DNA of 64,000 bases. It comes from a virus. Its lineage: Duplodnaviria; Caudoviricetes. A model generated the notes under the pieces. It searched no databases. It was given only the letters and a program-made list of their open reading frames with translations, and was not told the origin of the DNA. The stretch is taken from IMG/VR virus record IMGVR_UViG_3300021399_000102, positions 137,558-201,557 of that record. One strand, 5' to 3'. Positions 42,656-57,251 of this stretch are shown here, piece after piece; within the stretch, counting starts at the first letter, position 1; every line of letters starts with the position of its first letter. Position numbers and translations under genes: made by a program.

Positions 42656-45317
42656 ACCCTATTGTGGATAGAGCCATTCCAAACATCCCAAACAAAATGC
42701 CAATCAATACGACAGCACCACCGACCAGAAGCAGAAGGAGAACAGAAGGCCATAAGAACGCCAACATCCCAATAGGAATGTATAAATCAAACACGACATT
42801 CAAGTCCAACTCGTTCCACTTGATGTCTTTCCCAAACCACATTCCAACCAAGATTGGGAACAGAACCACACCCACCCAATAGATTATCCAAAGCATCGTT
42901 TCCATATCAGTTGTTCTCCCCTTTCTTTGTCATTCTGCGCTCATACCACCAATCAGAAATCTGATTGCACCAATCCTCGCCCTTGTACATCAAGAACTGA
43001 ATAGGCTTGAATACAAGAACAAACAATACTCCAATCACAAGACCGGCCACAATTGCGCAAGCCAGAAGAACTGGCCAGAACAATATCATGATCAAGAACA
43101 CCAAAATGTCAAAGTTGTCGAACCTGGCTCTCTTTGGATGCATATACGCTCCCAACCCAATAGTTGCAATCAATACTCCAATCAAGTACAATGCAATTGC
43201 TGCTTCAATAGGCATGATGATTCCCCCTCTCTTGATAATTATATATTGTCATCTTGCTTACCAACATGTCTCAATGCCCCTTCCTCTTCCTGTCATGCTC
43301 GTCCCTGGATTCATAGGTCTTCTGCTTCAAGACATTTACGCAATAGTCGTTCTCAGTCAATATCGCAGCAACCTTCCTTGAAAGTTCCCTCACCTTCTCC
43401 TCAGCATAGGCAAACACCCTGATGTCGGGCATTCGATCCTCTGGCCACTTTCCGGTCATCCAGGGGTAATTAGGGTCGTCCATGTCTGGGTTCTGCTCCT
43501 TCGTGGGCTTTGGAAGCTTCTTGAACAAGTCGTTGCGCTTCTTCAACTCCACTTGCATGTAGATTGCAAGTTTGCACCAATCGTGATCGGTGTCATGCGC
43601 CGGTCTCTCAGACCTAATCCTGTCCAAGAGCCACTTGTACCACTTCGTGGTCTTCTTCCACCGATCGTATTCAGACCCATAGGGAATGAATGGATATGAT
43701 TTTCTAAACTGGTCAATGGTCATTTCACAATCTCCTTCATCCCTTTATTTTTCTTTCCGTATTTGCGATTTTCCCCAAAATCTCGTTCGTCTCAATTTCT
43801 GTGACCGTAGCGAACCCATTGAGCAACATCATAGTTCCACCAAGGATGCAATAGAGGGCAATACTGTTCTTGCCATGACCCTTGGCGACCCCAGCAATGA
43901 AGCAGAATATTCCAAACGTCAAGATTGATGCGAACTTTATGAAACCCTTCATGTCATCAAAATCCTTTCTTGTGCATAATCCAAAGCCAACCACCAGCAA
44001 CTATGGCAGAGAACAATAGACATATTCCAAGGCAAATTGCGACATCTTTGCCATCTGGGGCTTGATTCTGCCTACAAGCGAGATCTTCGTTGTCATCCAT
44101 CAATATTGTATTGTAGATGTTCCCAGGAACTGCCATATATGCCGGACTTGTTAAGATATTGTTGTTCACAATTTCTCCTTGTTCAATATTCGACCCTATT
44201 ATATCACATCAGTGTCCGAAAGTCAATATCCCTTCGTCAATCTTCTGGAGACAACACGAATTGGGCAAAGCATTGAAGTATGTTCCCACACTTCCAACTG
44301 TCAGAATCCAGAAGCCCGATTATCTCGCCCCTTCTCCTAATGCATCCCATTGGACATCCTTGTTCGCAATAGTTGCAATGTTCCACAAACGCCTTGACCA
44401 ATTCCGAGGAACTGTTGACAACATCGCATTTCCGTTTGGACTTCCTCGCCACATTACCCCCTTCTGCCAAGAATTCGCTTGTACTCGGCGATGTCATTGT
44501 CCAAGTGTTTGTTGTACCTGTCCACAATGTCATAGTACATATTCTTCCAACTCTCCTTCTCCCTCCACAACTTGCAACAAGCGGAAAGAAGCGTCTTCAT
44601 GTCATTTTCAAGTGGTCTGCCATCCTTCATCTTGTCCACAACGCGAAGCATGAACGTCTCCAACTTCCCACGGTCTATGTTGCCGGAGGTTGAATCCAAT
44701 ACGTTCTCAATCATCACCTTCAGGATGTCGTCGAAGTTGTCGTCAATCATTGTCTTTCTTCTCCATTTCAATCTTGCATTTCCAATATTCGGTGGCATAG
44801 TCAAGCAAGTTCCCACGACACCTTTGGCACAAATCCACCAAGGATTCAATGCTTGTCGCGCCAGAGACATCAAGCCTGCCTGCTGTCTCTGCCATGACGT
44901 GTATGGCTTCTTCAGCCTTCTTCAAGAGGTCATTTTCATTCATAGGAATATCCTTTGCCATATTATACCACTTTTCCTTGAAATGGTAAAGTTCAATCAG
45001 AATCCAGATTGTATCATCTGCCGAAGACGACAAAAAGATGGTTCTTTTGTAACCAAAGAAACCATCAAAGAAGGATCGGGGTTTTCTCGCCAAGGACAAT
45101 CCCACATCGCACACCGATGGGAACATCTTTTAAGGCGAAGGACGCTGTGCTGCGCGTATATCGTCTATGCCAACCCCCATACCCGCATAGACACAACCCA
45201 CCGCCTGTCAATCCATTGCAATAGATGTTCCGGAAACACCAAGTTGGTGGATATGGCTGCGCATTGGGAAGATGATTGGGACCTATTGAACAAGCCAATC
45301 AGGATATAGAAGGAAAC

Positions 45318-45392
45318 TGGAGCCTCCACCCCGGGTCGAACGGGGACGAGCTGATTACAAATCAGCCATTCTACCATTACAATTATAGAGGC
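45318..45392 (-). tRNA. tRNA-Thr(UGU)
   Basis: GCTGA-tt TGT aa-TCAGC; CCA encoded. Confidence 0.9.
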
Positions 45393-45402
45393 AACTTGAA
45401 AC

Positions 45403-45477
45403 TGGTGGACCGCCGGGGAGTTCAACCCCGCTATCTGCCGTGCAAAGGCAGTGTAATAAGCGATATACGAGCAGCCC
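45403..45477 (-). tRNA. tRNA-Ala(UGC)
   Basis: CTGCC-tt TGC ac-GGCAG; G3:U70; ACCA. Confidence 0.85.
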
Positions 45478-45507
45478 ATTGTAAATCCTATTGTCAATTA
45501 TACGAAA

Positions 45508-46266
45508 TCATTTAAGCAGAAGTGAATCATTCAAAATTATTTTTCCATCTACAAAGTCTTTATATTGTTTCTCACCAATAAAGTAGATTCTTATTCCTGG
45601 ATTATTTTCCAAGACAAGACTCATCTTTTCCTTGTCTTTGTCTGAATAATAACCCTTTACTTCAATATACTCGTTTGTATCAGGTAAGTAGAAATCTGGA
45701 TTATAGGTCTTGCGTATTCCATCCTTAATGTATTTCAATGATTTGTTTCTGATCCAATTTATGTCGGTTGAAGTTAATTTGTTGGCAACATTCTCCTCCC
45801 AGTGACCCCGTACAGTATATTCAACCCCATCTAAGTTCTTCACTTTATACCAACCAACATCTTTGAATCCCCCTTTACACGAATCAAGATATTTAGAACG
45901 AATTTCAGAAAGTTTCTCTCGTGTTTCTTTGGTGTGAGTATGATGTAAAATTCTTTTTTGTGAGATTTTATTTTTCTCTGCTATTTGTCTTATTTTTATT
46001 GATGTCTCGCTGGTCAATCCCTTGTTCCATGCCATTCCCTTCTTAAATCCATGTTTCTCTTTTCTATGGATTTGCATTTCTTTTCTTGTACAGAAAATAC
46101 TTCCACAAATTGTACACTTCCAAGTGTGTTGTTGTCTATTCACATTAAAATTGCACACATGATGTTTGACTTGTTTGCCAATGAATACATGCCTACAATG
46201 ATTGGAGCAGAATCTTCCGCTCCCATATGTCCCATCATGGGGATTTCCACAATTCTCACATTTCAT
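45508..46266 (-). CDS. free-standing endonuclease (Zn fingers, NUMOD-like, PD-(D/E)XK)
   Basis: MKCENCG..GSGRFCS, C2H2 finger, AWNKGLT, YNPDFYL..YIEVKG. Confidence 0.8.
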   Translation of the reverse strand: MKCENCGNPHDGTYGSGRFCSNHCRHVFIGKQVKHHVCNFNVNRQQHTWKCTICGSIFCTRKEMQIHRKEKHGFKKGMAWNKGLTSETSIKIRQIAEKNKISQKRILHHTHTKETREKLSEIRSKYLDSCKGGFKDVGWYKVKNLDGVEYTVRGHWEENVANKLTSTDINWIRNKSLKYIKDGIRKTYNPDFYLPDTNEYIEVKGYYSDKDKEKMSLVLENNPGIRIYFIGEKQYKDFVDGKIILNDSLLLK

Positions 46267-46376
46267 AATTTTACCTTTAGTTTAATGTCGTTGTTCGCTC
46301 AACGACATCTTTATTTACAATTATACGAAAAGTTGTCCTCGAATCTGTTGGAGCGAACCATGAGTCCGAGGGCAAA
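46267..46376 (-). promoter_or_regulatory. kissing-loop leader motif, copy 1
   Basis: hairpin loop TTCGCT complementary to downstream hairpin loop AGCGAA; TATAAT-t-GTAAATA between them. Confidence 0.7.
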
Positions 46377-46378
46377 AT

Positions 46379-46471
46379 TGGTTGGGGAGGCGGGGCTCGA
46401 ACCCGCGATTGATGTAATCTCAAGAACCAACTACGTTTCTACGGCTTATAAGACCGCGTCGCTACTCCCCA
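46379..46471 (-). tRNA. atypical tRNA-Ile(UAU): no D arm, about 34 nt variable region
   Basis: acceptor TGGGGAG/CTCCCCA-ACCA, GCGGT-ct TAT aa-GCCGT, T arm GCGGG-TTCGAGC-CCCGC. Confidence 0.65.
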
Positions 46472-46496
46472 TTGAAATTAAAAGTTGAAGCCCAAG

Positions 46497-46752
46497 AAAT
46501 GGGTCAAATACATCGGTTTTCTTCCGAAGTGAAATCCCCATCTTCGCCGTTTAGACATTTCTGATTTATAACTCTTGGACTTCTGGGAGTTATACCCGGC
46601 GCGTTCAATCACTCCGCCACCATACCACAGGCTGCGATAGGGAGGGATTCAAACCCCCGGTCGAAGATTCGCCTTTCAGCAAAAGATAACACCCAACAGC
46701 AACCGGTTTGCGGTGGGTATTCTTCGACACCGAACACTGTTATCTCCCATTT
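46497..46752 (-). ncRNA. Y-RNA(YrlA)-like RNA with circularly permuted tRNA domain
   Basis: order T arm, closed acceptor stem, D arm (core 46596-46660); ends pair AAATGGG/CCCATTT. Confidence 0.55.
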
Positions 46753-46763
46753 AACTTGAAACC

Positions 46764-46840
46764 TGGAGCATCAGATGGAACTCGAATCCACAACCTCGTC
46801 CATGGCAAGGACGCGCTCTGACCAATTGAGCTACTGACGC
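46764..46840 (-). tRNA. tRNA-Gly(GCC)
   Basis: CGTCC-tt GCC at-GGACG; TCCA. Confidence 0.92.
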
Positions 46841-46922
46841 AAGATTGCCGTGCGATTTCACTGCCGACCGATGTGCCCGAAGCATCTATCATTCGCCCGA
46901 TCAAGCTTCAACACGGCAAAAG

Positions 46923-46997
46923 TGGATCGAATGATGGGTGCTGCTCCCACTTAATCCAACCTGGCAGATTGGTGTACTGCTGATGTACCACATTCGC
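46923..46997 (-). tRNA. tRNA-Gly(GCC), atypical T loop
   Basis: CCAAT-ct GCC ag-GTTGG; TCCA. Confidence 0.75.
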
Positions 46998-47004
46998 ATT
47001 AAAT

Positions 47005-47080
47005 TGGTGCGATGTGCCGGTGACGCTCCGGCCCGTTCAGCTTGGAAGGCTGACATCCTGCTAACATAAATGAACATCGC
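47005..47080 (-). tRNA. tRNA-Gly(UCC)
   Basis: TCAGC-ct TCC aa-GCTGA; CCA. Confidence 0.85.
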
Positions 47081-47119
47081 AAAAATCCTTAAACCATGAC
47101 GAAAGGGAAGCATTGAAAC

Positions 47120-47194
47120 TGGTTGTCCCGCCAGGATGTGCGCCTGGTCTAAGGGTATCAAAAACCCCTGTGCGGACTGATACACCACAGGACA
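47120..47194 (-). tRNA. tRNA-Gln(UUG)
   Basis: GGGGT-tt TTG at-ACCCT; U1-A72; CCA. Confidence 0.82.
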
Positions 47195-47884
47195 TACATT
47201 GAAATTGGGCAGGGTTTGCTTTTCCGGGGTCACCTGCGTTCTCCCCAACCGAAGACCCACGAGGGGCTTTTGATGTTTCTCGTTCGGCATCCACCTGGGG
47301 GATGGCGATACACGCAGTAGGCTACGCTGCTCCCTGGGTCTGCTGTTCCCCCAGCTCAGCCCAACACGTTCTTGGGACTTCACCAACGGTCGATTCGTCT
47401 ACGTCCTGTTGGCTTGCATATGGCGTTGTTCGTGATATCCCACAATATTGAACTCAAGCAACACGTCGGGATTCGGACCACGGTCTCCCCCCATACGAGA
47501 GGTATTCTGCCTTTTTGAACTATTCGTGTCTAATCCTCATGTGACGAACAACACCTAAAGAGGGAGTGTTTGCAGAGCAAGACTTCACCGGTAGCCACCA
47601 TCTTGCTTTTCGACTGCTGGGGTTTCTATCATTCACTCTTCCAGAATGCATCGAAACTAGGAACTTGCGCGTTAACCTACACACATCACATCCCCTGAAC
47701 ACACAACCCATATTGAAATTCTTGAAGCGGAGTTTGCTTGTGGATGCGTCTATAGCCACAGAGCCACCATGTTTACGGACCAGGAAAGAAGCTTTCTGAC
47801 CCCTGAATCCTATTTGTCCATTCATGACTGAACAACCCTCAGACGCTTATTATGTCTTCTCCGCACAATCTATCTGAGGGAAAT

Positions 47885-47960
47885 TGGTGTCCCAGACTTG
47901 AGTCGAACAAGCCACCTGATTCTTAGGAGGAATCCGCTCTTCCTGATGAGCTACTGGGAC
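47885..47960 (-). tRNA. tRNA-Arg(CCU)
   Basis: GATTC-ct CCT aa-GAATC; CCA. Confidence 0.92.
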
Positions 47961-48075
47961 ATTGAAATGCAGGAAGGAAGAAGAACGTAGTGGACTCGAA
48001 CCACCTCAGCCGTCGCATTCTCAATCAAGAGTGGGAACACCCATCCCAGATGTACGTTCTTGCTTCTCTCTCAAA

Positions 48076-48149
48076 TGGCGGGGTATCCGGGTGCTGCCCC
48101 CGGGACGCAAGTTAGACAGACTAACGTGATACTGTTTCACCAATACCCC
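48076..48149 (-). tRNA. tRNA-Asp(GUC)
   Basis: loop ct GTC ta, weak anticodon stem; GCCA. Confidence 0.75.
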
Positions 48150-48526
48150 CTTGAAATAGCAAGGTCTCATTTTTCAACCACTCGCCACCCATCCTACTCG
48201 GATTTTGAGATGTCTCCTGTACGGGGAGCCACGTATACTTTCGCTCGCCACTACTCGCGCACCGCCCATATTGGCGGCCTCTACTGTCCTTTCAGCCTTA
48301 GCCTTGTCCGTTGTATGAGACCCATATGTGAATCTGTTGCGTTCACGTGTTCTACGCAACTTCTGGCATGCCGAGGGGATGATCCACAATCCCCAAATCA
48401 AATCCATTCACTTGTCAAAGAACAACCTTTGTCTAATGCGCAAGCATTATTCAAAGAGCAATGTCTTTCCGGATGTTCTTGGACACATCCATCAAAGAGC
48501 AATAGCCATCAAAATTGGCATAGATA

Positions 48527-48555
48527 ATTATACAATACATCACGACCCAAGTAAA
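48527..48555 (-). promoter_or_regulatory. internal sigma70 promoter of the RNA array, followed by boxA-like sites
   Basis: TTTACT-N17-TATAAT; TGCTCTTTGA at 48492-48501 and 48451-48460; GTTCTTTGACAA at 48412-48423. Confidence 0.75.
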
Positions 48556-48573
48556 GGGAATTTTCAACAAAAA

Positions 48574-48651
48574 TGGTCTTCACGGAAGGAATCGAACCTT
48601 CGACCTCCACTATGTCAAAGTGGCACTCTTAACCTACTGAGCTACGCGAAG
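48574..48651 (-). tRNA. tRNA-Val(GAC)
   Basis: CCACT-tt GAC at-AGTGG; ACCA. Confidence 0.9.
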
Positions 48652-48653
48652 TT

Positions 48654-48728
48654 TGGTGGATGAGGAGAGAATCGGACTCCCAGCACATACCATGTGAAGG
48701 TATTGCTCTACCATTGAGCTACTCATCC
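48654..48728 (-). tRNA. tRNA-Val(CAC)
   Basis: ATACC-tt CAC at-GGTAT; ACCA. Confidence 0.9.
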
Positions 48729-48738
48729 ATATTGAAAT

Positions 48739-48815
48739 TGGGTTGTCTTGCTGGTTCTGCCCCAGCGATTTCCCCGTCCACAGCGGGGCGTCTTCACTAC
48801 TCGACCAAAGACAAC
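48739..48815 (-). tRNA. tRNA-His(GUG)
   Basis: CCCCG-ct GTG ga-CGGGG; G-1:C73; CCA. Confidence 0.85.
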
Positions 48816-48824
48816 ATCTAAATT

Positions 48825-48907
48825 CGGAGTGTGATAGATTTGCACTATCGGATGCTTTCACATCACAGATTTCCAATCTGACCCAATAACTACTCTGGCA
48901 ACACTCC
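48825..48907 (-). tRNA. tRNA-Ser(GGA)
   Basis: CAGA-tt GGA aa-TCTG, long variable arm, no encoded CCA. Confidence 0.82.
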
Positions 48908-48914
48908 ATAAATT

Positions 48915-49009
48915 CGGAGTTGGGTGGATTTGAACCACCACAGGGACTTTGACATCCCCTACTAACGGTTTAGCAAACCGTGGCCTTACCTGGTTAGGCT
49001 TACAACTCC
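48915..49009 (-). tRNA. tRNA-Ser(GCU)
   Basis: ACGGT-tt GCT aa-ACCGT, long variable arm, no encoded CCA. Confidence 0.88.
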
Positions 49010-49016
49010 ATAAAAG

Positions 49017-49105
49017 TGGAAGAGGGTATCCGATTCGGACGGATGGACGCTATTAACGCCACAGAGGTTCAAGCTCTGCTCAATAGACCACTCTGACAAC
49101 CCTCC
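49017..49105 (-). tRNA. tRNA-Ser(UGA)
   Basis: CAGAG-ct TGA ac-CTCTG, long variable arm. Confidence 0.85.
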
Positions 49106-49116
49106 ATTGAAATCTA

Positions 49117-49202
49117 CGGATGGAGCTGGACTTGCACCAACATGTGGCTTTCACCACCCTTGCTTTCGAGGCAAGACCTTTACTATTTAGGAGAATCCAT
49201 CC
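49117..49202 (-). tRNA. tRNA-Ser(CGA)
   Basis: CTTGC-ct CGA aa-GCAAG, long variable arm, no encoded CCA. Confidence 0.8.
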
Positions 49203-49776
49203 ATCTTGAAATTGAAAAGGAATATGGCGTTCCTGTTTCGCAAGGTTATGAGCCTTGAATACGACATGGACTCAGATGACTACTCGCTGTGGCTGGTCAC
49301 ATCTTCCGGAAGTTTTGCGGACTTGACTTTTTTAGTCCCGCCAGTTGGAGCATTGCTTTCGCACCACTTGTTGCTGTATCGCACAAGCATATTTCGTCAT
49401 TCAGGCTTGCCATCAAGCCTTGGCTTTTCTGCTACCCCCAGGGAGAGAAATGCCAACAAAGAGACATCGTTGAAATTGAACCAGAGACCAGAATTATTCG
49501 GCATGAACTTGCTTGGCATCGTCACACCAAGTATGTAGGTTCATACGTCAACCTTTAACGACTGCAAGAGTTGGACGTACACGAGGTTGCTATCCATTGG
49601 TACGTGTGGTCTTCTTCGGCGCTTATCTCTGTTCAGACCATCTTCATGCGAGTCTTATGACTGGAATGCGAATCCAATCAAAATGATGGAAGCAGTGGGA
49701 TTCGGGCCCACATTGGGGATTTCACCCATCCGCTTACCGAAGATTCCTTTCCTGTTCGGTTTCATGCTCCCATAAA

Positions 49777-49862
49777 TGGTCGGAGTGGAGGGATTTGAAC
49801 CCCCGAGGCTTTCGCATCTGCTCCCAAAGCAGACCCGGTACCAGGCTACGGTCTACACTCCG
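49777..49862 (-). tRNA. tRNA-Pro(UGG)
   Basis: TCTGC-tt TGG ga-GCAGA; C1-G72; ACCA; small extra variable hairpin. Confidence 0.9.
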
Positions 49863-49875
49863 ATGTAAATTGTAA

Positions 49876-50291
49876 ATGAACCATCCGACTGGGAGTTGCC
49901 CCACCTTGCGTCTAAACAAACGCTGCGCAAGCAACCATCGCAGGACATCCCACGAATTTTCACCATATCCCATTTATCTGCATCCACCTGCAACGGATGT
50001 ACCCCTCCACTTTTATTGTGTGAATCATTGGGATCCGCCAAGGCAGATCGTTATCTAGGACTTTCCATTGCTCATGGGTAGCCTTTCTTTCGGGTATGCA
50101 CCTTCGTTTATACGAAGCATCTCCTCTTCTCGGAGAAACCTTCGCAATCAGCATGAGTTTTGCTACTCTACTCACCACTATAGTGCGCCCATTCACTCAT
50201 TAAGGGGCTTGGTTTAACTTACTTTCCATTGTGGTGTAAGGCTGCCGTTGAAGCATTAAGCATACTGGGTTTCACTCCCCATCTGGTTCAT
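49876..50291 (-). ncRNA. candidate large structured RNA (~415 nt)
   Basis: closing helix ATGAACCA/TGGTTCAT, many hairpins, CAATGGAAAGT twice, no credible ORF, directly after a promoter and boxA. Confidence 0.5.
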
Positions 50292-50371
50292 AAAGTCGAT
50301 TGTCAAAGAGCAATCTTTGTCTATGCGAACTTGTCGCACATCAAAGATCTACGTTCAAATGAACGTATTCA

Positions 50372-50400
50372 ATTATACGCGCAATTGAACGTATTGTAAA
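50372..50400 (-). promoter_or_regulatory. internal sigma70 promoter plus boxA
   Basis: TTTACA-N17-TATAAT; TGCTCTTTGACAA at 50300-50312. Confidence 0.75.
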
Positions 50401-50402
50401 GT

Positions 50403-50477
50403 TGGCATCCCTGCACGGTAACGCTCCGTGGTCTGGTGGATGAAAACCACCCGATCTTACTTTTAATCTACAGGGAC
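50403..50477 (-). tRNA. tRNA-Glu(UUC)
   Basis: GGTGG-tt TTC at-CCACC; GCCA. Confidence 0.85.
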
Positions 50478-50521
50478 ATTGAAAGAGCAATGGTTGTTTG
50501 ATTTGCAAACACACATTGAAA

Positions 50522-50595
50522 TGGCAGCTCTGCACGGTATCGCGCCGTGTTCTCCTGCGTGAGAGGCAGGCGATCTGCTTCTAATCTACAGAGCC
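50522..50595 (-). tRNA. tRNA-Glu(CUC)
   Basis: CCTGC-ct CTC ac-GCAGG; GCCA. Confidence 0.85.
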
Positions 50596-50677
50596 ATTGA
50601 AATTGAAATCCAATTAAACGACATCGCTCTTTATTTGATGTGGCAATCACTGCCACATGGCAGTTTATTTTGTTTCG

Positions 50678-50761
50678 GACAGAGCCTTGCCAACCTCTTA
50701 ACCATCATTGGGAACGATGGATGGAGTCGAACCATCATGTTTGATTGCATAACCAAACGTC
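50678..50761 (-). ncRNA. second permuted tRNA-like (T-AS-D) domain, Y-RNA-like
   Basis: GATGG-TTCGACT-CCATC, CATCGTT-ccc-AATGATG, GAG-gttggcaagg-CTC. Confidence 0.55.
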
Positions 50762-50908
50762 TTGAAAATTGCTTGGCAATATTCAACCAATGTTCCAAGG
50801 GGGAATCGGACCCGTTGTTGCCTATCGTCATACTTCTCACCAGAGTAAGAACATCAATCATGGAATTGCCTTAACCATCTTGCAAGTTGGATAAATGAAC
50901 AAGTCATT

Positions 50909-50987
50909 TGGAGAGCGAGGTGGGAATCGAACCCACATTATCGCGGTTTTGCAGACCGCGCCCAGTGCCAATATCGAGAACTCGCCC
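50909..50987 (-). tRNA. tRNA-Cys(GCA)
   Basis: GCGGT-ct GCA aa-ACCGC; TCCA. Confidence 0.9.
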
Positions 50988-51111
50988 AAATTGACAAGCG
51001 ACACCCGGTCTGGTTTGACGGGGCAGAGCTGCGCAGATTGCACCCCTCCAGCATCTCGCCGTGCGCAATGGCGCGTTCTGATTGAACTACGTATGTGTCG
51101 CAAATTATCTA

Positions 51112-51795
51112 TTAAATTATACGGCCTTTTCTCCAACCATTTGGAATTGGATTTGTTTTTAGAATGACTTTGTTCTCACCAGTTAAATCATTACAAATCC
51201 ACATCTTTCCAAATTGATTGTTGTTTCTACCTTGTTTCTTTTCTGACATTTTTCTACGAGATTCGTTTGAATGATGCTTACCATACATGGGGTTTAATTC
51301 GCCCGTTTTAGGATGACTTTTGGCGTATTGTTTATTTGCCATTGAATTCTTTTTACGCCATTCTTCATATTTCTCAGGATTATTTTCTTTCAACCGTTTA
51401 GCCCACCCTTTTGATGGATATTCACCCGTTTCTTCAAAAATCCTTTTACATGTTTCAGAAAGTGGCTTAAAATTTCCACTATGATTTAATCCAGTTGTGT
51501 TCAAATAATCCCAACCACCTTGACCACCAAGTTTGATGTTATAGACATCATTACGATTCAAAAAATCTTCATTTACGAGTTCAGCTTCCTTTGCGTTCAT
51601 TTCCTCTTGTGAAGAACACTCAAATAGAATCTCTCGCTTGAAATTCTGTTCGCCATACTTCTCTATGGCGCGTTGGATTAGAATGCCCGAACCCAAATAT
51701 CCATCATCCAGGTTGTCCGTTTCATGTTTGCCAATGTAGATTTTACCATTGACCAGATTAGTGGTCTTGTAAACCAAATAATGTTTCTTCTTCAT
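51112..51795 (-). CDS. GIY-YIG (Seg-like) homing endonuclease with NUMOD3
   Basis: YLVYKTTNLVNGKIYIGKH..DGYLGSG..YNIKLGG; NPMYGKHHSNESRRKMSE. Confidence 0.92.
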   Translation of the reverse strand: MKKKHYLVYKTTNLVNGKIYIGKHETDNLDDGYLGSGILIQRAIEKYGEQNFKREILFECSSQEEMNAKEAELVNEDFLNRNDVYNIKLGGQGGWDYLNTTGLNHSGNFKPLSETCKRIFEETGEYPSKGWAKRLKENNPEKYEEWRKKNSMANKQYAKSHPKTGELNPMYGKHHSNESRRKMSEKKQGRNNNQFGKMWICNDLTGENKVILKTNPIPNGWRKGRII

Positions 51796-51910
51796 GTTCT
51801 TTTACCTTTAGATTTACGAGGTTGTTTGCTCCAACCTCATTACTGTTTACAATTATACTCAGATTAAGTCCCCACATCCCTGTTGGGAGCAAACCATGAA
51901 GGAGGGGGAC
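51796..51910 (-). promoter_or_regulatory. kissing-loop leader motif, copy 2
   Basis: loop TTTGCTC complementary to loop GAGCAAA; TATAAT-t-GTAAACA between. Confidence 0.7.
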
Positions 51911-51915
51911 AAATT

Positions 51916-51988
51916 CACGGTCTGGTGGAGTCGAACCACCCTCTTCGGATTTGGAGTCCGAGGCACTCTCCATGAAGACCAAGACCGT
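51916..51988 (-). tRNA. tRNA-Trp(CCA)
   Basis: TCGGA-ct CCA aa-TCCGA; no encoded CCA tail. Confidence 0.85.
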
Positions 51989-51995
51989 ATTGAAA

Positions 51996-52071
51996 TGGCA
52001 CTCCCACTCAGATTCCAACTGAGAATACAGAGTTCGTAGCCCTGGAGTTTATGCGATTAGCTTATGGGAGC
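51996..52071 (-). tRNA. tRNA-Arg(ACG)
   Basis: CAGGG-ct ACG aa-CTCTG; GCCA. Confidence 0.85.
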
Positions 52072-52081
52072 ATTCAAGAAA

Positions 52082-52155
52082 TGGCTGGGGATGATGGTAT
52101 TGCGCCACCTCTAAAAGGTTCAGAGCCTTCTGTACCACTTTTATACGAATCCCCA
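52082..52155 (-). tRNA. tRNA-Gln(CUG)
   Basis: GAAGG-ct CTG aa-CCTTT; TGGGGAT/ATCCCCA-GCCA. Confidence 0.88.
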
Positions 52156-52549
52156 ATTGTTAAAAGAGCTGAGCGTTTTTGCCGATGTTTGGTTATCTAT
52201 TCATTGATATCCATACATTGGGGAGTGGAGGATGTACACCATCAAAGCTCGTGTACCGACCCATGAAACACACAAACCACCTGGTCTTATGGTGATTCCA
52301 GGAACCAATCAATCCCACAATATCTGAATAAGTGGAGTCAAATCGTAAATTGAAATTGGCGGCAACGTCCGATTCTCACGGCACAAACAGCTCCCTGCTG
52401 CCATGCTCATATGGTTTCCCTATCTAGAGTCAAGAAACCACGTCCCTTGTTTCGGAGCAAGGCGAATTCAATTCCTTTGACTCCTTCGTGGATTACATCA
52501 TATTGCCAAAATTGGTGGAAGTGTCGCACAAGGGGACACGTACCATAAA

Positions 52550-52623
52550 TGGTGGACACGTCCGGTAACGCTCCGGAGTCTCCTCAATGCCATTGAGGTG
52601 TTCTACTATTGAACTAGCGGCCC
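52550..52623 (-). tRNA. tRNA-Ala(GGC)
   Basis: CCTCA-at GGC at-TGAGG; ACCA. Confidence 0.85.
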
Positions 52624-52625
52624 AT

Positions 52626-52699
52626 TGGTGGAGTCGTCGAGAATCGAACTCGGATCTCTTGAATGCGAATCAAGCGTTCTACCACTGAACTAACGCCCC
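52626..52699 (-). tRNA. tRNA-Ala(CGC)
   Basis: CTTGA-tt CGC at-TCAAG; ACCA. Confidence 0.88.
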
Positions 52700-52943
52700 A
52701 TTGTGAAATCTTGGCGTGAGAGGGAGTCGAACCCTCGTCTCGTTCATTGCCATTGAAATGTCCCGGCCGTAGAACCAATGACATTGAGTTGTTCTGCCGT
52801 TGAACTATCACCCCATCTTGAAATTGGTTGGAACAACCCTACCTTCAGTATCATGAACTTTGACCCGTTTCAATCAAGAAACTGTCGGTCCAATAGGCTT
52901 GCGTTCCCAAACAGGAAATCTTCACGTCGTCATTCCAAAATTA

Positions 52944-53019
52944 TGGTGGAAGAGGATGGGATCGAACCATCACCTTTGGATTTTCAGTCCATAGTACACA
53001 CCAAGTATACGACCCTTCC
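52944..53019 (-). tRNA. tRNA-Phe(GAA)
   Basis: TGGA-ct GAA aa-TCCA; ACCA. Confidence 0.88.
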
Positions 53020-53155
53020 ATTATGAAATTGGTGGCTGTCTTGTGGTTATCTACTCCACTGTCTCCCCAACGGGCGATGCATCAACCCATAACGTCAGGG
53101 AACCCGTTTTACGCACGGGACAAGACCAATTACTTGCGTATCAAGCCATTGAAAC

Positions 53156-53242
53156 TGGTTGTGAGGGTTGGAATTGCACCAACGTTGTTTCTAATGTGGC
53201 GGGTTTACAGCCCGCTGCGTTCGCTACTACGCTAACCCCACA
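53156..53242 (-). tRNA. tRNA-Tyr(GUA)
   Basis: GCGGG-ct GTA aa-CCCGC; long variable region. Confidence 0.88.
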
Positions 53243-53251
53243 ATAAAATCT

Positions 53252-53339
53252 TGGTTGGAGAGGTGGGACTCGAACCCACGACAGAATTACCATGCGGGTG
53301 TATCAGACCCGTGCGTTACACCAACTTCGCCACTCTCCA
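53252..53339 (-). tRNA. tRNA-Ile(GAU) with long variable region
   Basis: CGGGT-ct GAT ac-ACCCG; ACCA. Confidence 0.85.
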
Positions 53340-53359
53340 ATTGAAATCTCGAAATCGTT

Positions 53360-53434
53360 TGGTGTCGGATGGTGGAGTCGAACCACCTTATAACGCCGTA
53401 TGAAAGCGCACCATGACCGTTCTGGCAACCCGAC
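53360..53434 (-). tRNA. tRNA-Met or Ile2 (CAU)
   Basis: GCGCT-tt CAT ac-GGCGT; ACCA. Confidence 0.82.
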
Positions 53435-53437
53435 ATT

Positions 53438-53512
53438 TGGAGCTGGAAATTGCACTCGCAGCAATGTTATCCGTCTTACGAGGACGGCGCCTGACTTCTC
53501 AGCCATTCCAGC
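53438..53512 (-). tRNA. tRNA-Thr(CGU)
   Basis: CCGTC-ct CGT aa-GACGG. Confidence 0.85.
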
Positions 53513-53649
53513 ATACTTGAAAGGTTGCTTGCATTCACATGAGTGGTTGTTGGTTTGTTCTCCAACGAGGAATCGGGAACTCATGAAGAAAGAACCATAC
53601 CGAAGAACATCTTCGTGCAATGCAAGGCTTGAAATTCATCGTGAAATCT

Positions 53650-53724
53650 TGGAGCTGACGGAAGAACTCGCATCTTCGTGTTCCGTCATACCAAGACGGC
53701 ACCTAACTTCTCAGTCACATCAGC
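53650..53724 (-). tRNA. tRNA-Thr(GGU)
   Basis: CCGTC-tt GGT at-GACGG. Confidence 0.85.
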
Positions 53725-53734
53725 ATTGAATCGT

Positions 53735-53813
53735 TGGTAGGGATGATGGGATTCGGACCCATACTGTACACGCCCTGAACGTGTCGCCTGCTGCCAAATT
53801 GGGCTACATCCCC
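53735..53813 (-). tRNA. tRNA-Leu(CAG), short variable loop
   Basis: ACACG-tt CAG gg-CGTGT; ACCA. Confidence 0.88.
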
Positions 53814-53825
53814 ATTTGTCGAAGT

Positions 53826-53911
53826 TGGTCGCCAAGGAGGGACTTGAACCCTCACGTACTTTCGTACAATAGATTTTGAGTCTATCGCGGCTGCCATTAC
53901 ACCACTTGGCG
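53826..53911 (-). tRNA. tRNA-Leu(CAA)
   Basis: ATAGA-ct CAA aa-TCTAT; long variable arm. Confidence 0.9.
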
Positions 53912-53912
53912 C

Positions 53913-53989
53913 TGGTCCTGGTGGAGGGAGTCGAACCCACACTACACGGAGTTTGAAACCGCCGGCTCTGCCAATTGGTCTACACCAGG
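53913..53989 (-). tRNA. tRNA-Leu(CAA), short variable loop
   Basis: GCGGT-tt CAA ac-TCCGT by alignment to the neighbouring Leu(CAG). Confidence 0.72.
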
Positions 53990-54000
53990 ATTCTTGAAAT

Positions 54001-54093
54001 TGGTGCGGGTGAGAGGACTTGAACCTCCACGGTACTATGATTTCCCAACAGCCCCTCAAGCTGTCGCGTACTGCCAAATTTCGCCACACCCGC
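54001..54093 (-). tRNA. tRNA-Leu(GAG)
   Basis: ACAGC-tt GAG gg-GCTGT. Confidence 0.9.
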
Positions 54094-54280
54094 ATTTGAA
54101 GTCGCCGGACTAACTGCTCTATAAACAAGGTTCGCAATGTCCTTGCTGGTGAAGAGACTAACACCACGTCACCACGCAATGCGTTCATCCAGTAAAAATG
54201 GTACTTCCACTCGGAACTGCCCCGAGATATAGCCGGTAAGAGCGGCTGGTCTTCTAGTTGACTTATGGAAGCATTGAAGA

Positions 54281-54355
54281 TGGTACTCCGCGCGGGAGTC
54301 AAACCCGCAACCCAGGGTTTAAGAGACCCTTGCGCTATCATTGCGCCAGCGGAGC
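54281..54355 (-). tRNA. tRNA-Lys(CUU)
   Basis: AGGGT-ct CTT aa-ACCCT. Confidence 0.9.
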
Positions 54356-54362
54356 ATTGAAA

Positions 54363-55082
54363 TTATTCATCTATGAACTCTTTGGCAATCCGAATATACT
54401 TCTTTGGATTGTGGAATACATCTTTCCACTTGAGTCTCAACAATTGCCATCCTTCATCCTTTAAGAGTTCATTCTTTCTCAAATCCCTTTCTATTTGCTC
54501 TGGGAATATTTCGTGCTGCTTGCCATCAATCTCAATGCACTTCTTCTTGTGTTCCCAGGCAAAGTCCAACGAGAACCTATGAAACGGTCTTTCACGCACA
54601 TAGTTCTTGTCAGCAAATTCGTTCTCAATCACTTGCATGAACCACTTCTCGGGCCATGAAGGTTCATTGTTCCATCTGCACTCGCCAATGTTGTGCGCAC
54701 GGCCTTCTGCGTGAGCTTTCTTCATTGACTCAGAAATCTTCTTTCGCATTTCATCCGGGAGATGCTTTCCTTCCCAATGGAACTTTACCAATCCTTCTGA
54801 AATTCGTTGTTTAAGCGTTTCAACACCTTTGGCAATTCTTGGGTCTATGTCTTTCGTCAAACCCTTATTCCAACATCGTTTCGATTTGTGTGCTTCATGT
54901 TTGTGCTTATACATTAAGCTACGAGACTTAAATTCTTCGCCACATTGGTCGCATATCCAAGGTGTGCCTTTCTGGTGTTTTCGTTCGCAAGAGTGAGCAT
55001 ATGCTCCTCTACATTCCTTGGAGCAGAATCTTCCGCTTCCATACGAGCCATCATGCTCGTTTCCACATACTTCGCATTTCAT
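54363..55082 (-). CDS. free-standing endonuclease (Zn fingers, NUMOD3, DUF559/Vsr-like nuclease domain)
   Basis: MKCEVCG..GSGRFCS (same N-terminus as 45508..46266), GKHLPDEMRKKISES, LDFAW..IEIDGKQH..RDLRKNELLKDEGWQLLR. Confidence 0.82.
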   Translation of the reverse strand: MKCEVCGNEHDGSYGSGRFCSKECRGAYAHSCERKHQKGTPWICDQCGEEFKSRSLMYKHKHEAHKSKRCWNKGLTKDIDPRIAKGVETLKQRISEGLVKFHWEGKHLPDEMRKKISESMKKAHAEGRAHNIGECRWNNEPSWPEKWFMQVIENEFADKNYVRERPFHRFSLDFAWEHKKKCIEIDGKQHEIFPEQIERDLRKNELLKDEGWQLLRLKWKDVFHNPKKYIRIAKEFIDE

Positions 55083-55195
55083 AATTTTTGCCTTTAGTTT
55101 AGAGACGTTATTTACGGTAACGTCATCTCTATTTACAATTATACGAAAATTTGTCCCAGACCTATGTTGGCCGTAAACCATGATGGAATGGGACA
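55083..55195 (-). promoter_or_regulatory. kissing-loop leader motif, copy 3
   Basis: loop TTTACGG complementary to loop CCGTAAA; TATAAT-t-GTAAATA between. Confidence 0.7.
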
Positions 55196-55200
55196 TTAAG

Positions 55201-55478
55201 TGGCTGATGAGGAGGGACTCGAACCCCCAGTTGCTTTCGCCACGGATTACCTGCTACATTGGTTTCCCATTGTAGTCTGGACTATCTCATCATCCCATTT
55301 CTGGGAGCGTCCTCTATAGTCTCTACGCATTTACGCATTTCTGCGATTTAGTTCTGTGATTAGCATGTTGCATACGCAATTTAGCCTCTCCAGAGTTAGG
55401 GACGTGTTTCAATCAAGGTTGCCCTTGAAAGCTGCCATATAGGACAGTCCGCTGCCTTACCATTCGGCTCACTCATCA
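55201..55478 (-). tRNA. tRNA-Asn(GUU) interrupted by a group I intron (exons 55444-55478 and 55201-55249)
   Basis: spliced arm GCGGA-ct GT^T aa-TCCGT; U1-A72, G73, CCA. Confidence 0.88.
55250..55443 (-). ncRNA. group I intron (194 nt, no ORF)
   Basis: 5' exon ends in U paired to G in P1 (CTGT^C / GGCAG); R element GTAGAGACTATA, S element GATAGTCC (P7); terminal G. Confidence 0.88.
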
Positions 55479-55659
55479 TCAAATCGTTCTAAATTGACGT
55501 GTTGGGAAGGATTCGGACCTTCATAGGGCATTATGCTAACGAATGTTTCCATGCTTGGAAACCACCTCTCTAATGTCCAATCGGCGGCCTTTGCCGATGC
55601 ATAGCCCGTTCTATGCTGCTTCAACACACGAAACTTGTTTCAGCACTATTGAAATTCGC

Positions 55660-55731
55660 TGGGATGTGTTGGAATCGAACCAACCTAGTCACCCCTTATC
55701 ATAGGGCCGCCACACCAGTAGCTTACATCCT
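55660..55731 (-). tRNA. tRNA-Ile(GAU), divergent second copy
   Basis: GCCCT-at GAT aa-GGGGT; canonical T arm; no CCA. Confidence 0.65.
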
Positions 55732-56479
55732 TTATAGCATGTCTATTGTGCTTCGCCGCACGACCTTACACCCACGTCTGGGCATTTTGCGCAAAATTGA
55801 AAAGGTCTTTCTCAAAGGCAATCTATCATATTCTCGGCGCCAACTGGTCAATTACTCCAAATGGCGTTGTTCCTCAATATGAGGTGTGGGGTTTCTTTCC
55901 ACGGTTGTTCCAAACCAATCGCAGGCTACTTGTGGGTTTTCTGCCCAATCCGTGCTTCTTACACCATAGAGCAATTCGCCTTGCCTTTGATTCAATTGTG
56001 TTCCCCTTGGTCAACCACTCGCTGCCCATCGTCTCGCTAAAGATCTGACGCCGAAGCCTTGTCCGTTGCAGGGGAAATCTTGAAATTGTAGAAGTGGCTG
56101 GGCCCGAGGGTCATACCTATCATAAGAGAGTTGCATCCGGATCCACATTGCTCTCCCATATTTCAGCTGGGTCTCTCAGTCATGCCACATTGAAATTGAA
56201 CAAGGCACTATTTGGATGACAAGTATCCAAAAGATTCCCAGCTCCGAACCGGGCGTTTCAATAACTAAGGCATAGATTGTCCAACTTGTCATAATGGTCA
56301 TCTACACCCATAGCGGAGGCGTTTATCTCCTCAATCTTGTCGTGCCGTCAACTACCTAACCACCAAAAGATGGGCTAAGTTTTCCGTGAGTTACCTCCGA
56401 CGATTGGCTCGTTGACAGAGCCTGCCAATCAGATTGGGTTTCAGCAATTAGAAAACCAACGAGATTGGGTGTATGAAAT

Positions 56480-56554
56480 TGGTAGCGGGAATTGGAGTCG
56501 AACCAACCATCACCGGGGTATGAACCCAGTATGCAACCGCTGCACCGTCCCGCA
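56480..56554 (-). tRNA. initiator-like tRNA-fMet(CAU)
   Basis: 1:72 mismatch, GGG/CCC anticodon stem, tt CAT ac; ACCA. Confidence 0.85.
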
Positions 56555-56895
56555 ATCTTGAAAATGGTGTTGCTGAGGGAGTGCGCTACGCTCCAATGTT
56601 GGGTATTCCTTCACACTTGGCAAATTCTCCACCCCATCGGGCCCTATGAAATGGCGTCTTCCAAGATTCACTGTGAAGTTTAGTTGTATTTCCCAACTCC
56701 CTCATGCAAGAGGGTATGTTGCTTTCCATCACTCGCAACGAAATTGAATAGCCATTCGCTTTAGACCCAAGGTTCCCTAATGGGTTTCCTCCAAGGGCTG
56801 ACTCGCGTATGATGTTCCTTCCTCAGGAACAGTCTTTACTACATCGTCATTCAATTGTCAAAGATCCTATTGTCGCTTTCACAAACAACACCCAT

Positions 56896-56928
56896 AGTAT
56901 ATCACATCTCGGTGTTCTTGTAAAGGGG
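56896..56928 (-). promoter_or_regulatory. sigma70 promoter of the RNA array plus boxA
   Basis: CCCCC-TTTACA-N17-TATACT with extended TG; GATCTTTGACAA at 56855-56866. Confidence 0.8.
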
Positions 56929-56948
56929 GTTTCCAAACTTTTTCAGTT

Positions 56949-57025
56949 TGGTCACGGTGACGAGACTCGAACTCGCATCCCACGGTTTAAAAGACCGTTG
57001 CAGAAACCTATTTTGCTACACCGTG
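56949..57025 (-). tRNA. tRNA-Lys(UUU)
   Basis: ACGGT-ct TTT aa-ACCGT; ACCA. Confidence 0.9.
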
Positions 57026-57251
57026 TTGTTGAAATCCACTTGAACCGTCAGCTCTAGACCTATGGCTAATGACTTCCCCATAGGAAGACTCGCTCTGACT
57101 TCATGCAGTCTTTACTTCTGTATCCCACGATTGATTGTTTCTTTTTTTGTGAAACCATCAATCGGTCCTAATATTCAATTGTCAAAGATCCATGTCCTTT
57201 TGCCCCTGGACTTGGGGGTGTCTCAACTTCTTTTTCGTTTCAACACTGCAT

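Follow-up and report, generated by a model that had tools for sequence, protein, structure and literature searches.

An array of 40 transfer RNA (tRNA) genes in an uncultured rumen jumbo phage is interleaved with about 30 non-tRNA cassettes, most of which, we are confident, are genuine transcribed genes for structured RNAs. This polycistronic array occupies positions 45040–57190 (minus strand) of the 64,000-nucleotide (nt) stretch of DNA analysed here (the window), the terminal part of a 201,557-bp linear virus record (IMG/VR IMGVR_UViG_3300021399_000102, estimated to be 48% complete) whose contig end lies 6.8 kb upstream of the array. Three endonuclease genes are also present, and a short spacer, AUUUCAA(U), recurs 25 times; to judge from its placing, the cassettes are probably released at or near this spacer. 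The record comes from gut metagenomes, and relatives were found in sheep and bovine gut samples.

Syntenic arrays were compared in the complete genomes G006, G007 and G010 (414–434 kb), the fragments G009, L151, L144, L166 and L169, and the Logan contig L153. RNA evidence consists of assembled contigs of the RNA runs X15, X16, X17 and X20, X15 being the same-sample run (from the probable source sample). Covariance models from Rfam 15 were searched both at gathering scores and at E up to 10. Cassettes and promoters described below lie on the minus strand.

Most cassettes are conserved and exchanged as units

Orthologues in related rumen jumbo phages were found for 19 of the 21 non-tRNA segments tested. 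Cassettes have been gained, lost and moved as whole units among these relatives (U and K are relocated in L153, L is placed after tRNA-Met in L151 and G007, and E is reduced to a 30-nt stem), and inside cassettes invariant blocks stand beside freely replaced inserts. When structures were predicted blind, from this genome only, and double changes in relatives were set against slid controls, pairing was kept in 10 of 11 double changes for the tRNA-like cassettes (slid, 7 of 19) and in 6 of 7 for cassette e (slid, 2 of 10). A test of indel frame was dropped: 115 of 122 cassette indels were not multiples of three, but the coding control failed too (9 of 12).

With no difference in sequence, contigs of the same-sample run cover cassettes f, e, b2+c, X+Y, W, T and D, and those of a second study c, X+Y, W and D; in two bovine studies, e, T, W, X+Y, G1, E and others are represented by diverged relatives. 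The seven array contigs listed for X15 all lie clear of tRNA and coding sequence (CDS; permutation p = 4.5e-5), a figure that concerns the longest pieces only and is not counted as evidence.

Many more conserved cassettes, not present in this phage, occur in the arrays of L172, L173 and L309; the lineage-wide repertoire therefore exceeds 30.

A first-pass annotation had described the array as holding many unknown structured RNAs. Orthology, modular exchange, covariation in the best-sampled families and RNA-library contigs bear this out, but not all cassettes are of unknown kinds: the array includes one unit of YrlA topology, one probable group I intron, about a dozen tRNA derivatives and some missed tRNAs and leaders. 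The terminal stems it quoted are present, and several of its boundaries need redrawing. What was taken as one cassette at 54101–54262 is really a tRNA-Lys(CTT) at 54195–54272 plus a separate 90-nt unit; 48163–48322 is only the 3′ part of a longer RNA, with contigs of three RNA runs spanning 48183–48389; and 47205–47445 is not a unit of its own but is joined to a tRNA-like stretch at 47455–47545. The whole, cassette b2+c (47205–47545), consists of an anticodon-less tRNA-like domain joined to a multi-hairpin domain with a CCCA end and is covered by one RNA contig (47209–47543).

The spacer is a probable processing signal

Between 45.0 and 57.2 kb, ATTTCAA has 25 exact copies on the minus strand and 1 on the plus strand, against 2.1 ± 1.4 expected (maximum 9 in 500 dinucleotide shuffles) and 0.14 per kb on the same strand of the remaining genome, in agreement with the more than 20 repeats first reported. 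By our assignment, 23 of the 25 copies lie at unit boundaries, 7 of them between two non-tRNA cassettes and 9 between a cassette and a tRNA; the two interior copies are at 51644 (in the GIY-YIG CDS) and 52759 (in a tRNA-Ala derivative). To this extent the spacer delimits the cassettes as proposed, but 46844–46920 and the 5′ ends of 49876–50291 and 48163–48322 lack it, and cassette edges without ATTTCAA have instead a short U-rich linker or a promoter/boxA-like leader. Because the assignment of boundaries is partly circular, the ends of homology blocks between the array and six relatives were used as a separate test: 25.6% lie within 6 nt of TTTCA, against a background of 8.2%. The handle of the usual clustered regularly interspaced short palindromic repeats (CRISPR) is AUUGAAA; the spacer is the reverse complement of this handle, on the wrong strand, and was rejected as one.

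The 5′ leader consensus of 142 tRNAs in six arrays is UUUCAAU at −7 to −1, with A(−2) in 113 and U(−1) in 101 of them, and UUU directly follows the encoded CCA in 72%. The RNase E motif is RN^WUU (PMC5222698), RNase E cleaves 1–3 nt past CCA (PMC2190699), and RNase P favours A(−2) (PMC5602109). We propose that four promoters with boxA-like leaders drive long precursors, from which host tRNA-processing enzymes would separate the units at the spacer. Its AUUU part may be an RNase E-type site just past CCA, a cleavage suggested by the fit of the sequence, and its UUUCAAU part may be the 5′ leader of the following unit, with an A(−2) suiting RNase P; about ten cassettes, which end in an acceptor-like stem and NCCA, would be matured like tRNAs. 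The position of the spacer thus agrees with the co-processing suggested in the first-pass annotation, but discrete mature ends were seen only at one circular junction, near two spacers. A spacer of this kind would render every unit exchangeable and hence allow the gain, loss and reshuffling of cassettes.

A widespread motif often lies beside tRNA and tmRNA genes

Cassette F (55999–56079) has a near-invariant CAACGGACAAGGCU ... GCGAGUGGUUGACCA core between two covarying helices. A second copy of this motif (48162–48324) follows 5′ hairpins in cassette X+Y (48158–48410; 57 bits with model R1; RNA contigs of three studies at 48183–48389), F and Y being paralogues with a common core that occurs twice in this array. 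The 5′ half of the motif matches at least 120 viral stretches, and all 12 viral loci found by the 3′ half alone also have the 5′ half upstream. Across 78 distinct sequences, the top mutual-information pairs are those of the two helices, which take all four Watson–Crick pair types around the near-invariant core. In a 27-sequence alignment 93% of cells are paired and double changes occur in 11 of 18 pairs, a result reached by none of 500 shuffles and by none of the slid controls, all of which were lower.

Of 84 loci, 39 have a tRNA or transfer-messenger RNA (tmRNA) no more than 30 nt from the motif, where 6.3 would be expected. The motif adjoins tRNA-Arg, unannotated, in the cultured Streptomyces phage Daubenski, and weak matches were found in related phages. 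Neither the window copies nor the minimal 76-nt member matched Rfam, and a search of paper text gave unrelated matches only. In a pattern scan of GTDB, just 6 of 80 loci among the matches listed scored with model R1, one of them weakly, so few that the motif seems mostly viral and rare in prokaryote genome contigs. In unrelated low-GC phages (L009:12821-13036 and L011), it stands immediately upstream of a tRNA with a CTA anticodon, an amber suppressor.

A YrlA-like cassette in a lineage with Ro60 and RNA ligase

Cassette e (46482–46752; 271 nt) consists of a circularly permuted tRNA domain and a 3′ domain, with the arm order V arm, T arm, loop-closed acceptor, D arm; YrlA has T arm, loop-closed acceptor stem and D arm, with an optional V arm upstream (PMC4201824). 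The acceptor helix of e covaries across three genomes (the window, G006 and G007), and in their alignment the Levitt pair G15–C48 is present in all three and the elbow pair is A19–U56 in the window and G006 and G19–C56 in G007. The sequence GNCGAAN0-1G, which YrlA carries near its 5′ end, occurs in e at 46728 and 46548; the 5′ copy forms part of a helix and is imperfectly kept in G006 and G007, and the second copy belongs to the 3′ domain. The arm order, the Levitt pair, the covarying 19–56 elbow pair and the presence of Ro60 in the complete relatives thus recall YrlA (RF02553; PMC4201824). YrlA is 80–130 nt long, however, whereas e has an extra 3′ domain and a 9-bp bulged acceptor helix; YrlA lies within about 4 kb of Ro60, whereas e is ~30 kb away in G006 and G007; and e did not match RF02553. 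Since e departs from YrlA in size, Ro60 distance and Rfam model, we call it YrlA-like and not YrlA.

All three complete relatives encode a TROVE/Ro60 protein of 552–577 aa (G006:C1:393313-394242, G007:C1:342320-343069 and G010:C1:177487-178260), and there was no YrlA match beside these TROVE genes. A T4 Rnl1-type RNA ligase is likewise found in all three (L312, L313 and L314); RtcB, an Rnl2-type ligase and a CCA-adding enzyme were not found in them. TROVE proteins and RNA ligases are coupled in jumbo phages (PMC7824862). In run X16 the assembly of a relative of e with ~91% identity gave a contig of 302 nt that runs through 46752 directly into 46482 at a depth of 49.7, as would be expected of a 272-nt circle with its ends a few nt inward of the flanking spacers; this is one contig of one RNA run with no DNA control, and it may be a library artefact or reflect a tandem duplication. 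Circular YrlA is not described in PMC4201824.

Other non-tRNA cassettes

Cassette T (49876–50291) is a large RNA in which four core blocks are conserved and the inserts hypervariable (218–420 nt across relatives); short forms of it occur in RNA runs X16 and X20. T had no Rfam match, and the covariance models of the phage RNAs GOLLD (RF02032) and ROOL (RF03087) were unmatched here at E up to 10 and also in the relatives. A twister-like 14-mer in T was rejected, as it sits in a non-conserved insert, and a search with a short T pattern returned six unrelated loci only. Cassette W (49212–49469; contigs in X15, X16 and X17) similarly combines a conserved core with an optional insert. Cassettes A (57039–57121; invariant AAAGACU, C-AGUC and GGUCUA) and B (56746–56845) are the first and second copies of a promoter-proximal family. 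Double changes were counted in 13 of 39 predicted pairs of T (8 sequences), 7 of 28 pairs of W (8 sequences), 9 of 42 pairs of c and 5 of 9 predicted pairs of A/B (13 copies in 7 records aligned), counts that lean favourable because the structures were derived from the same alignments; we regard the modelled structures of T, W, c and A/B as plausible.

A and B are always the first unit past a promoter, usually with a boxA-like motif. In G010 a third copy (L315:1520-1740) stands between a promoter-like site and a solitary tRNA-Arg, with the RNA ligase gene ~2 kb downstream of it. Given this constant promoter-first position and the extra copy before a lone tRNA-Arg, A and B may act in cis.

Near the start of the array, cassette C (56565–56741) has a closing acceptor-like stem, an ACCA end, a 94.5% orthologue in G010 and a relative's RNA contig in X20; D (56196–56472) has a conserved 3′ part (56196–56346) and a 5′ part found in this phage only, with contigs at 56249–56449 (X15) and 56272–56441 (X17); and E (56087–56189) has a GUGGC/GCCAC stem with AUGA/ACCCA internal loops, shortened to about 30 nt in relatives. 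G1 (55797–55987) is a conserved multi-hairpin RNA with orthologues in six relatives, of whose alifold pairs 11 of 34 show double changes but 14 are broken. Cassette I, the separate unit beside tRNA-Lys (54101–54192), has a partial orthologue in L153, and J (53523–53628; z −4.1) is a stem-closed RNA between two spacers, whose orthologue in G007 keeps both ends around a replaced interior and terminates in ACCA. In O (52165–52350) the 5′ half is conserved and a structure is unsupported. Orthologues were found for V (49476–49680) in L166 and G010, for a (47720–47880) in three relatives, and for b1 (47545–47712) in L153; none was found for d (46844–46921), a 77-nt stem. The last unit of the array, f (45065–45312), has an 85% orthologue in G006 and an X15 contig at 45081–45249.

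tRNA look-alikes

About 12 cassettes (G2, H, K, L, M, N, N0, P, Q, R, U, Z and b2) are tRNA look-alikes that retain an acceptor stem, T arm or NCCA end without a conserved anticodon. In G2, H, K, L, N, U, Z and b2 there is no canonical 7-nt anticodon loop with U33 in a standard cloverleaf, and the loop is absent or variable in orthologues; K keeps a GUA-containing loop, but its T arm is non-standard and most copies have C33. ARAGORN calls a tRNA-Ile at 55660–55731 within G2 (55655–55796), the anticodon of which is not conserved in relatives. H (55496–55630) keeps acceptor and T arm around a rebuilt interior, as does N (52356–52507) with acceptor, T-like arm and GCCA end (double changes in 8 of 41 pairs; structure conservation index 0.94). 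K (53029–53148) is an expanded form with an ACCA end and a large variable arm (four orthologues; seven double-change pairs), L (52824–52936) an acceptor-like stem with ACCA, moved beside tRNA-Met in relatives, and N0 (52512–52546) a 35-nt mini-helix with an ACCA end and orthologues in G006, G007 and G010. M (52709–52815) is a tRNA-Ala derivative with a hairpin inserted in the anticodon arm; the insertion is not seen in relatives, and M is possibly decayed. P (50990–51100; no orthologue found), Q (50770–50892) and R (50610–50765) are tRNA-like or bear a T arm and together occupy 50610–51100, U (49685–49772) lacks an anticodon loop and is relocated in L153, and Z (47968–48075) has an extended acceptor stem.

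Array architecture

ARAGORN at default settings undercounts the tRNAs (32, against 40 after curation, in line with the approximate number first proposed) because many have non-standard T loops. Such loops (GGCAGCA, GUGCAAU, AGCGUUA) occur in many real tRNAs, for example at 47005–47080, 48742–48818, 50403–50595 and 54195–54272, and tRNA finders miss real tRNAs here for this reason. Missed or odd genes are those for tRNA-His (48742–48818), Asp (48079–48149), Gly (46923–46997) and Lys (54195–54272), the last a non-canonical minus-strand tRNA-Lys(CTT) found by relaxed ARAGORN, whose CTT loop is retained in relatives. Together with the calls made in look-alikes, this means that tRNA finders in such phages both overlook real tRNAs and mislabel look-alikes. 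A tRNA-Ile(TAT)-like gene at 46379–46471 has a nearly absent D arm and a long variable region, similarly in G007 and G009; it is canonical in G006. Two flanking-protein homologues pointed to non-syntenic loci, and a distant homologue of the gene upstream of the array (L147/L148) lies in a TAG=Gln recoded jumbo phage with no adjacent tRNA array.

Sequence that is neither tRNA nor CDS amounts to 6,824 nt, or 68% of the non-CDS part of the array with leaders and intron included; the large share of cassettes lacking an open reading frame (ORF) had been recognised, but at about half it was put somewhat too low. The contents are mixed, with about 18 non-tRNA RNAs and about 12 tRNA look-alikes beside a few missed tRNAs, one probable group I intron and promoter/boxA-like leaders. 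The Rfam scan, at gathering scores and at E up to 10, gave tRNA and a weak group I intron only, leaving the roughly 18 non-tRNA RNAs without a match. The 194-nt intron interrupts tRNA-Asn(GTT) (55201–55478, minus strand; ARAGORN intron call, conserved in L153 and G010); against RF00028 it scores 33 bits (55256–55442; E = 2.3e-5), under the gathering score of 50, and the flanking exons make a tRNA. No tmRNA was found in the window by ARAGORN or Rfam at normal thresholds, and canonical tmRNAs lie within the arrays of G006 and G010 (L171:10038-10370 and L309:11261-11596).

The three inserted endonuclease genes encode a phage endonuclease I-like protein (45508–46266, minus strand), a GIY-YIG/NUMOD3 protein (51112–51795) and a DUF559 protein (54363–55082). 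Though of different families, they share a conserved structured leader (46267–46372, 51796–51912 and 55083–55196), composed of a tRNA-like start and a TATAAT-containing block, which in relatives precedes other endonucleases too.

A promoter scan of the minus strand gave matches that, taken as a whole, do not exceed chance. Four promoter-like sites are each followed by a boxA-like motif: the sigma-70-like P1 (57252–57280; 10/12 match) with a boxA-like motif after it at 57179–57190; P2 (56896–56924) with one at 56855–56866; P3 (50372–50400), with leader hairpins and a boxA-like motif (50300–50311) in the unit 50292–50400; and P4 (48527–48555), with a leader and repeated boxA-like motifs (best at 48412–48423) in the unit 48411–48555. 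The motif (TCTTTGACAA core) follows each of the four promoter-like sites and is conserved in relatives, from which we suggest that the array probably comprises four transcription units or more. The motif resembles rrn boxA, and its presence suggests use of host NusB-type antitermination.

Discussion

As non-coding, non-tRNA units inside a phage tRNA cluster, these cassettes, at least seven of them covered by RNA contigs, resemble the small stable RNAs RNAC and RNAD of phage T4 (species 1 and 2; PMC3014915), likewise non-tRNA RNAs from such a cluster. T4 has two such RNAs; here there are about 30, punctuated by a single motif and visibly exchanged as modules. BLAST of four cassette stretches (T, D–G1, a–c and V–W) against cultured phages gave no real match and none that was T4-like, no direct homology search with RNAC/RNAD being made. 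GOLLD and ROOL (PMC12286853) are large phage non-coding RNAs (ncRNAs) beside tRNA islands, and T shares with them a conserved core and variable periphery but is 218–420 nt long and had no covariance-model match. Phage tmRNA and group I tRNA introns occur in the same arrays (tmRNA in G006 and G010, the intron here) and explain one cassette of this phage. F/Y, T, W, A/B, c and G1 are not described in Rfam or the literature searched; the alignments of Fremin et al. 2023 (PMC10690425), IMG/VR-derived candidate structured viral RNAs of which some are tRNA-like, were outside this comparison and may overlap F or T. The architecture is thus already known from T4 RNAC/RNAD, GOLLD/ROOL and YrlA, and the families and their density appear new.

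We suggest that the cassettes are RNA genes riding in phage tRNA operons and that they may mainly guard phage translation against RNA-attacking host defences and stress. The anticodon-less look-alikes and the widespread F motif could bind or titrate host proteins directed at tRNAs or ribosomes; e could be a Y-RNA-type partner of the phage Ro60 that, together with the phage RNA ligase, serves the repair or quality control of RNA. A mainly counter-defence or repair role is the reading that we tentatively prefer, with confidence just short of even; protection of translation is favoured because of the many anticodon-less look-alikes, the fast turnover and the known TROVE/RNA ligase coupling (PMC7824862), and a decoy or sponge function against RNA-targeting defence, as proposed in the first-pass annotation, would agree with the Ro60 and Rnl1-type ligase that the relatives encode.

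Several observations weigh against parts of this account. Single-sequence folding z-scores are mostly weak (below −2 in 8 of 35 segments), for which reason the case rests on comparative data; there the non-tRNA-like group was weak in the blind test (19 of 32, against 26 of 65 slid; coding control 6 of 10), covariation is weak in several lineage-restricted cassettes, and no orthologue was found for d, D1, P or the insertion in M. RNA contigs give presence only, without strand, ends or levels, and DNA carry-over is possible. The fit of the spacer was scored to the enzymes of Escherichia coli and Salmonella, the phage's own host may lack RNase E, and −3 is mostly A in these leaders, where the RNase P holoenzyme favoured U (PMC5602109). 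The Ro60 gene is not in this 48%-complete record, which stops before the matching region; in G006 and G007 it stands outside the 4 kb around e, and G010 has Ro60 and no detectable e. Antisense regulation of phage genes was rejected as a role, the matches in the phage record being 13–17 nt and at chance level, with no long target.

The main rival to counter-defence or repair is that the cassettes are processed RNAs acting as positive translation or host-takeover factors that bind ribosomes, elongation factors, synthetases or RNA polymerase, which we consider possible but rather unlikely. They share an operon with tRNAs and tmRNA, the F motif abuts tRNA and tmRNA genes across diverse phages, its near-invariant unpaired core suggests a conserved host partner, and GOLLD is reported to bind ribosomes in pull-downs (PMC12286853); set against this, fast gain and loss among close relatives resembles an arms race more than a core function, and no candidate partner was identified. 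That many cassettes are instead cis-acting parts of the precursor, serving antitermination, folding or end protection with no separate RNA life, is unlikely in general and probably true for A/B, X and the leaders. A and B are promoter-first, usually with a boxA-like motif, the G010 copy precedes a lone tRNA-Arg, and single RNA contigs span both X and Y, and both b2 and c; most cassettes, however, are internal, have their own closing stems and often NCCA ends, and change place without regard to promoters.

A reading of the cassettes as tRNAs that have decayed or been duplicated, and as neutral filler retained through its nearness to selected tRNAs, would account for the roughly 12 tRNA derivatives, for the resemblance of M to a rearranged tRNA-Ala, for d, D1 and P without orthologues, and for the mostly weak z-scores and group covariation. 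Yet invariant cores beside replaced inserts, compensatory changes and one family in at least 120 viral stretches speak against this very unlikely explanation, which fits few cassettes at most and is contradicted for F/Y, T, W, e, K and N. The size and core-plus-insert layout of T, the circular form of e, and the cages formed by GOLLD and ROOL near tRNA islands (PMC12286853) might indicate that the large cassettes T, b2+c and W are ribozymes or self-assembling RNAs, such as GOLLD/ROOL-like cages or packaging RNA; as the Rfam search at E up to 10 matched neither a ribozyme nor GOLLD or ROOL, and the minimal T is just 218 nt, we hold this to be highly improbable. Small proteins can be set aside almost entirely: ATG ORFs of 47–77 codons exist in C, T and X+Y, but most cassettes have no ORF above 25 codons, and large interior blocks are deleted or replaced among relatives where the paired cores stay.

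What small stable RNAs do in phage tRNA clusters has been at issue since T4 RNAC and RNAD, and this array offers defined families with orthologues, boundaries between core and insert, and a predicted signal for processing. As the F motif occurs in cultured Streptomyces phages, its deletion and assay are possible now, and with e, Ro60 and ligase in one lineage, the idea of a possibly circular Y RNA encoded by a phage can be put to a concrete test in the laboratory. At its boldest, the preferred reading is that this phage lineage may possess an RNA-encoded repertoire for counter-defence and RNA repair, with about 20 new ncRNA families passed on as cassettes through one processing signal, a circular Y-RNA variant working with Ro60 and ligase, and an F motif, present in many groups of phages, targeting a conserved component of host translation, a picture that we put forward as possible though on balance doubtful.

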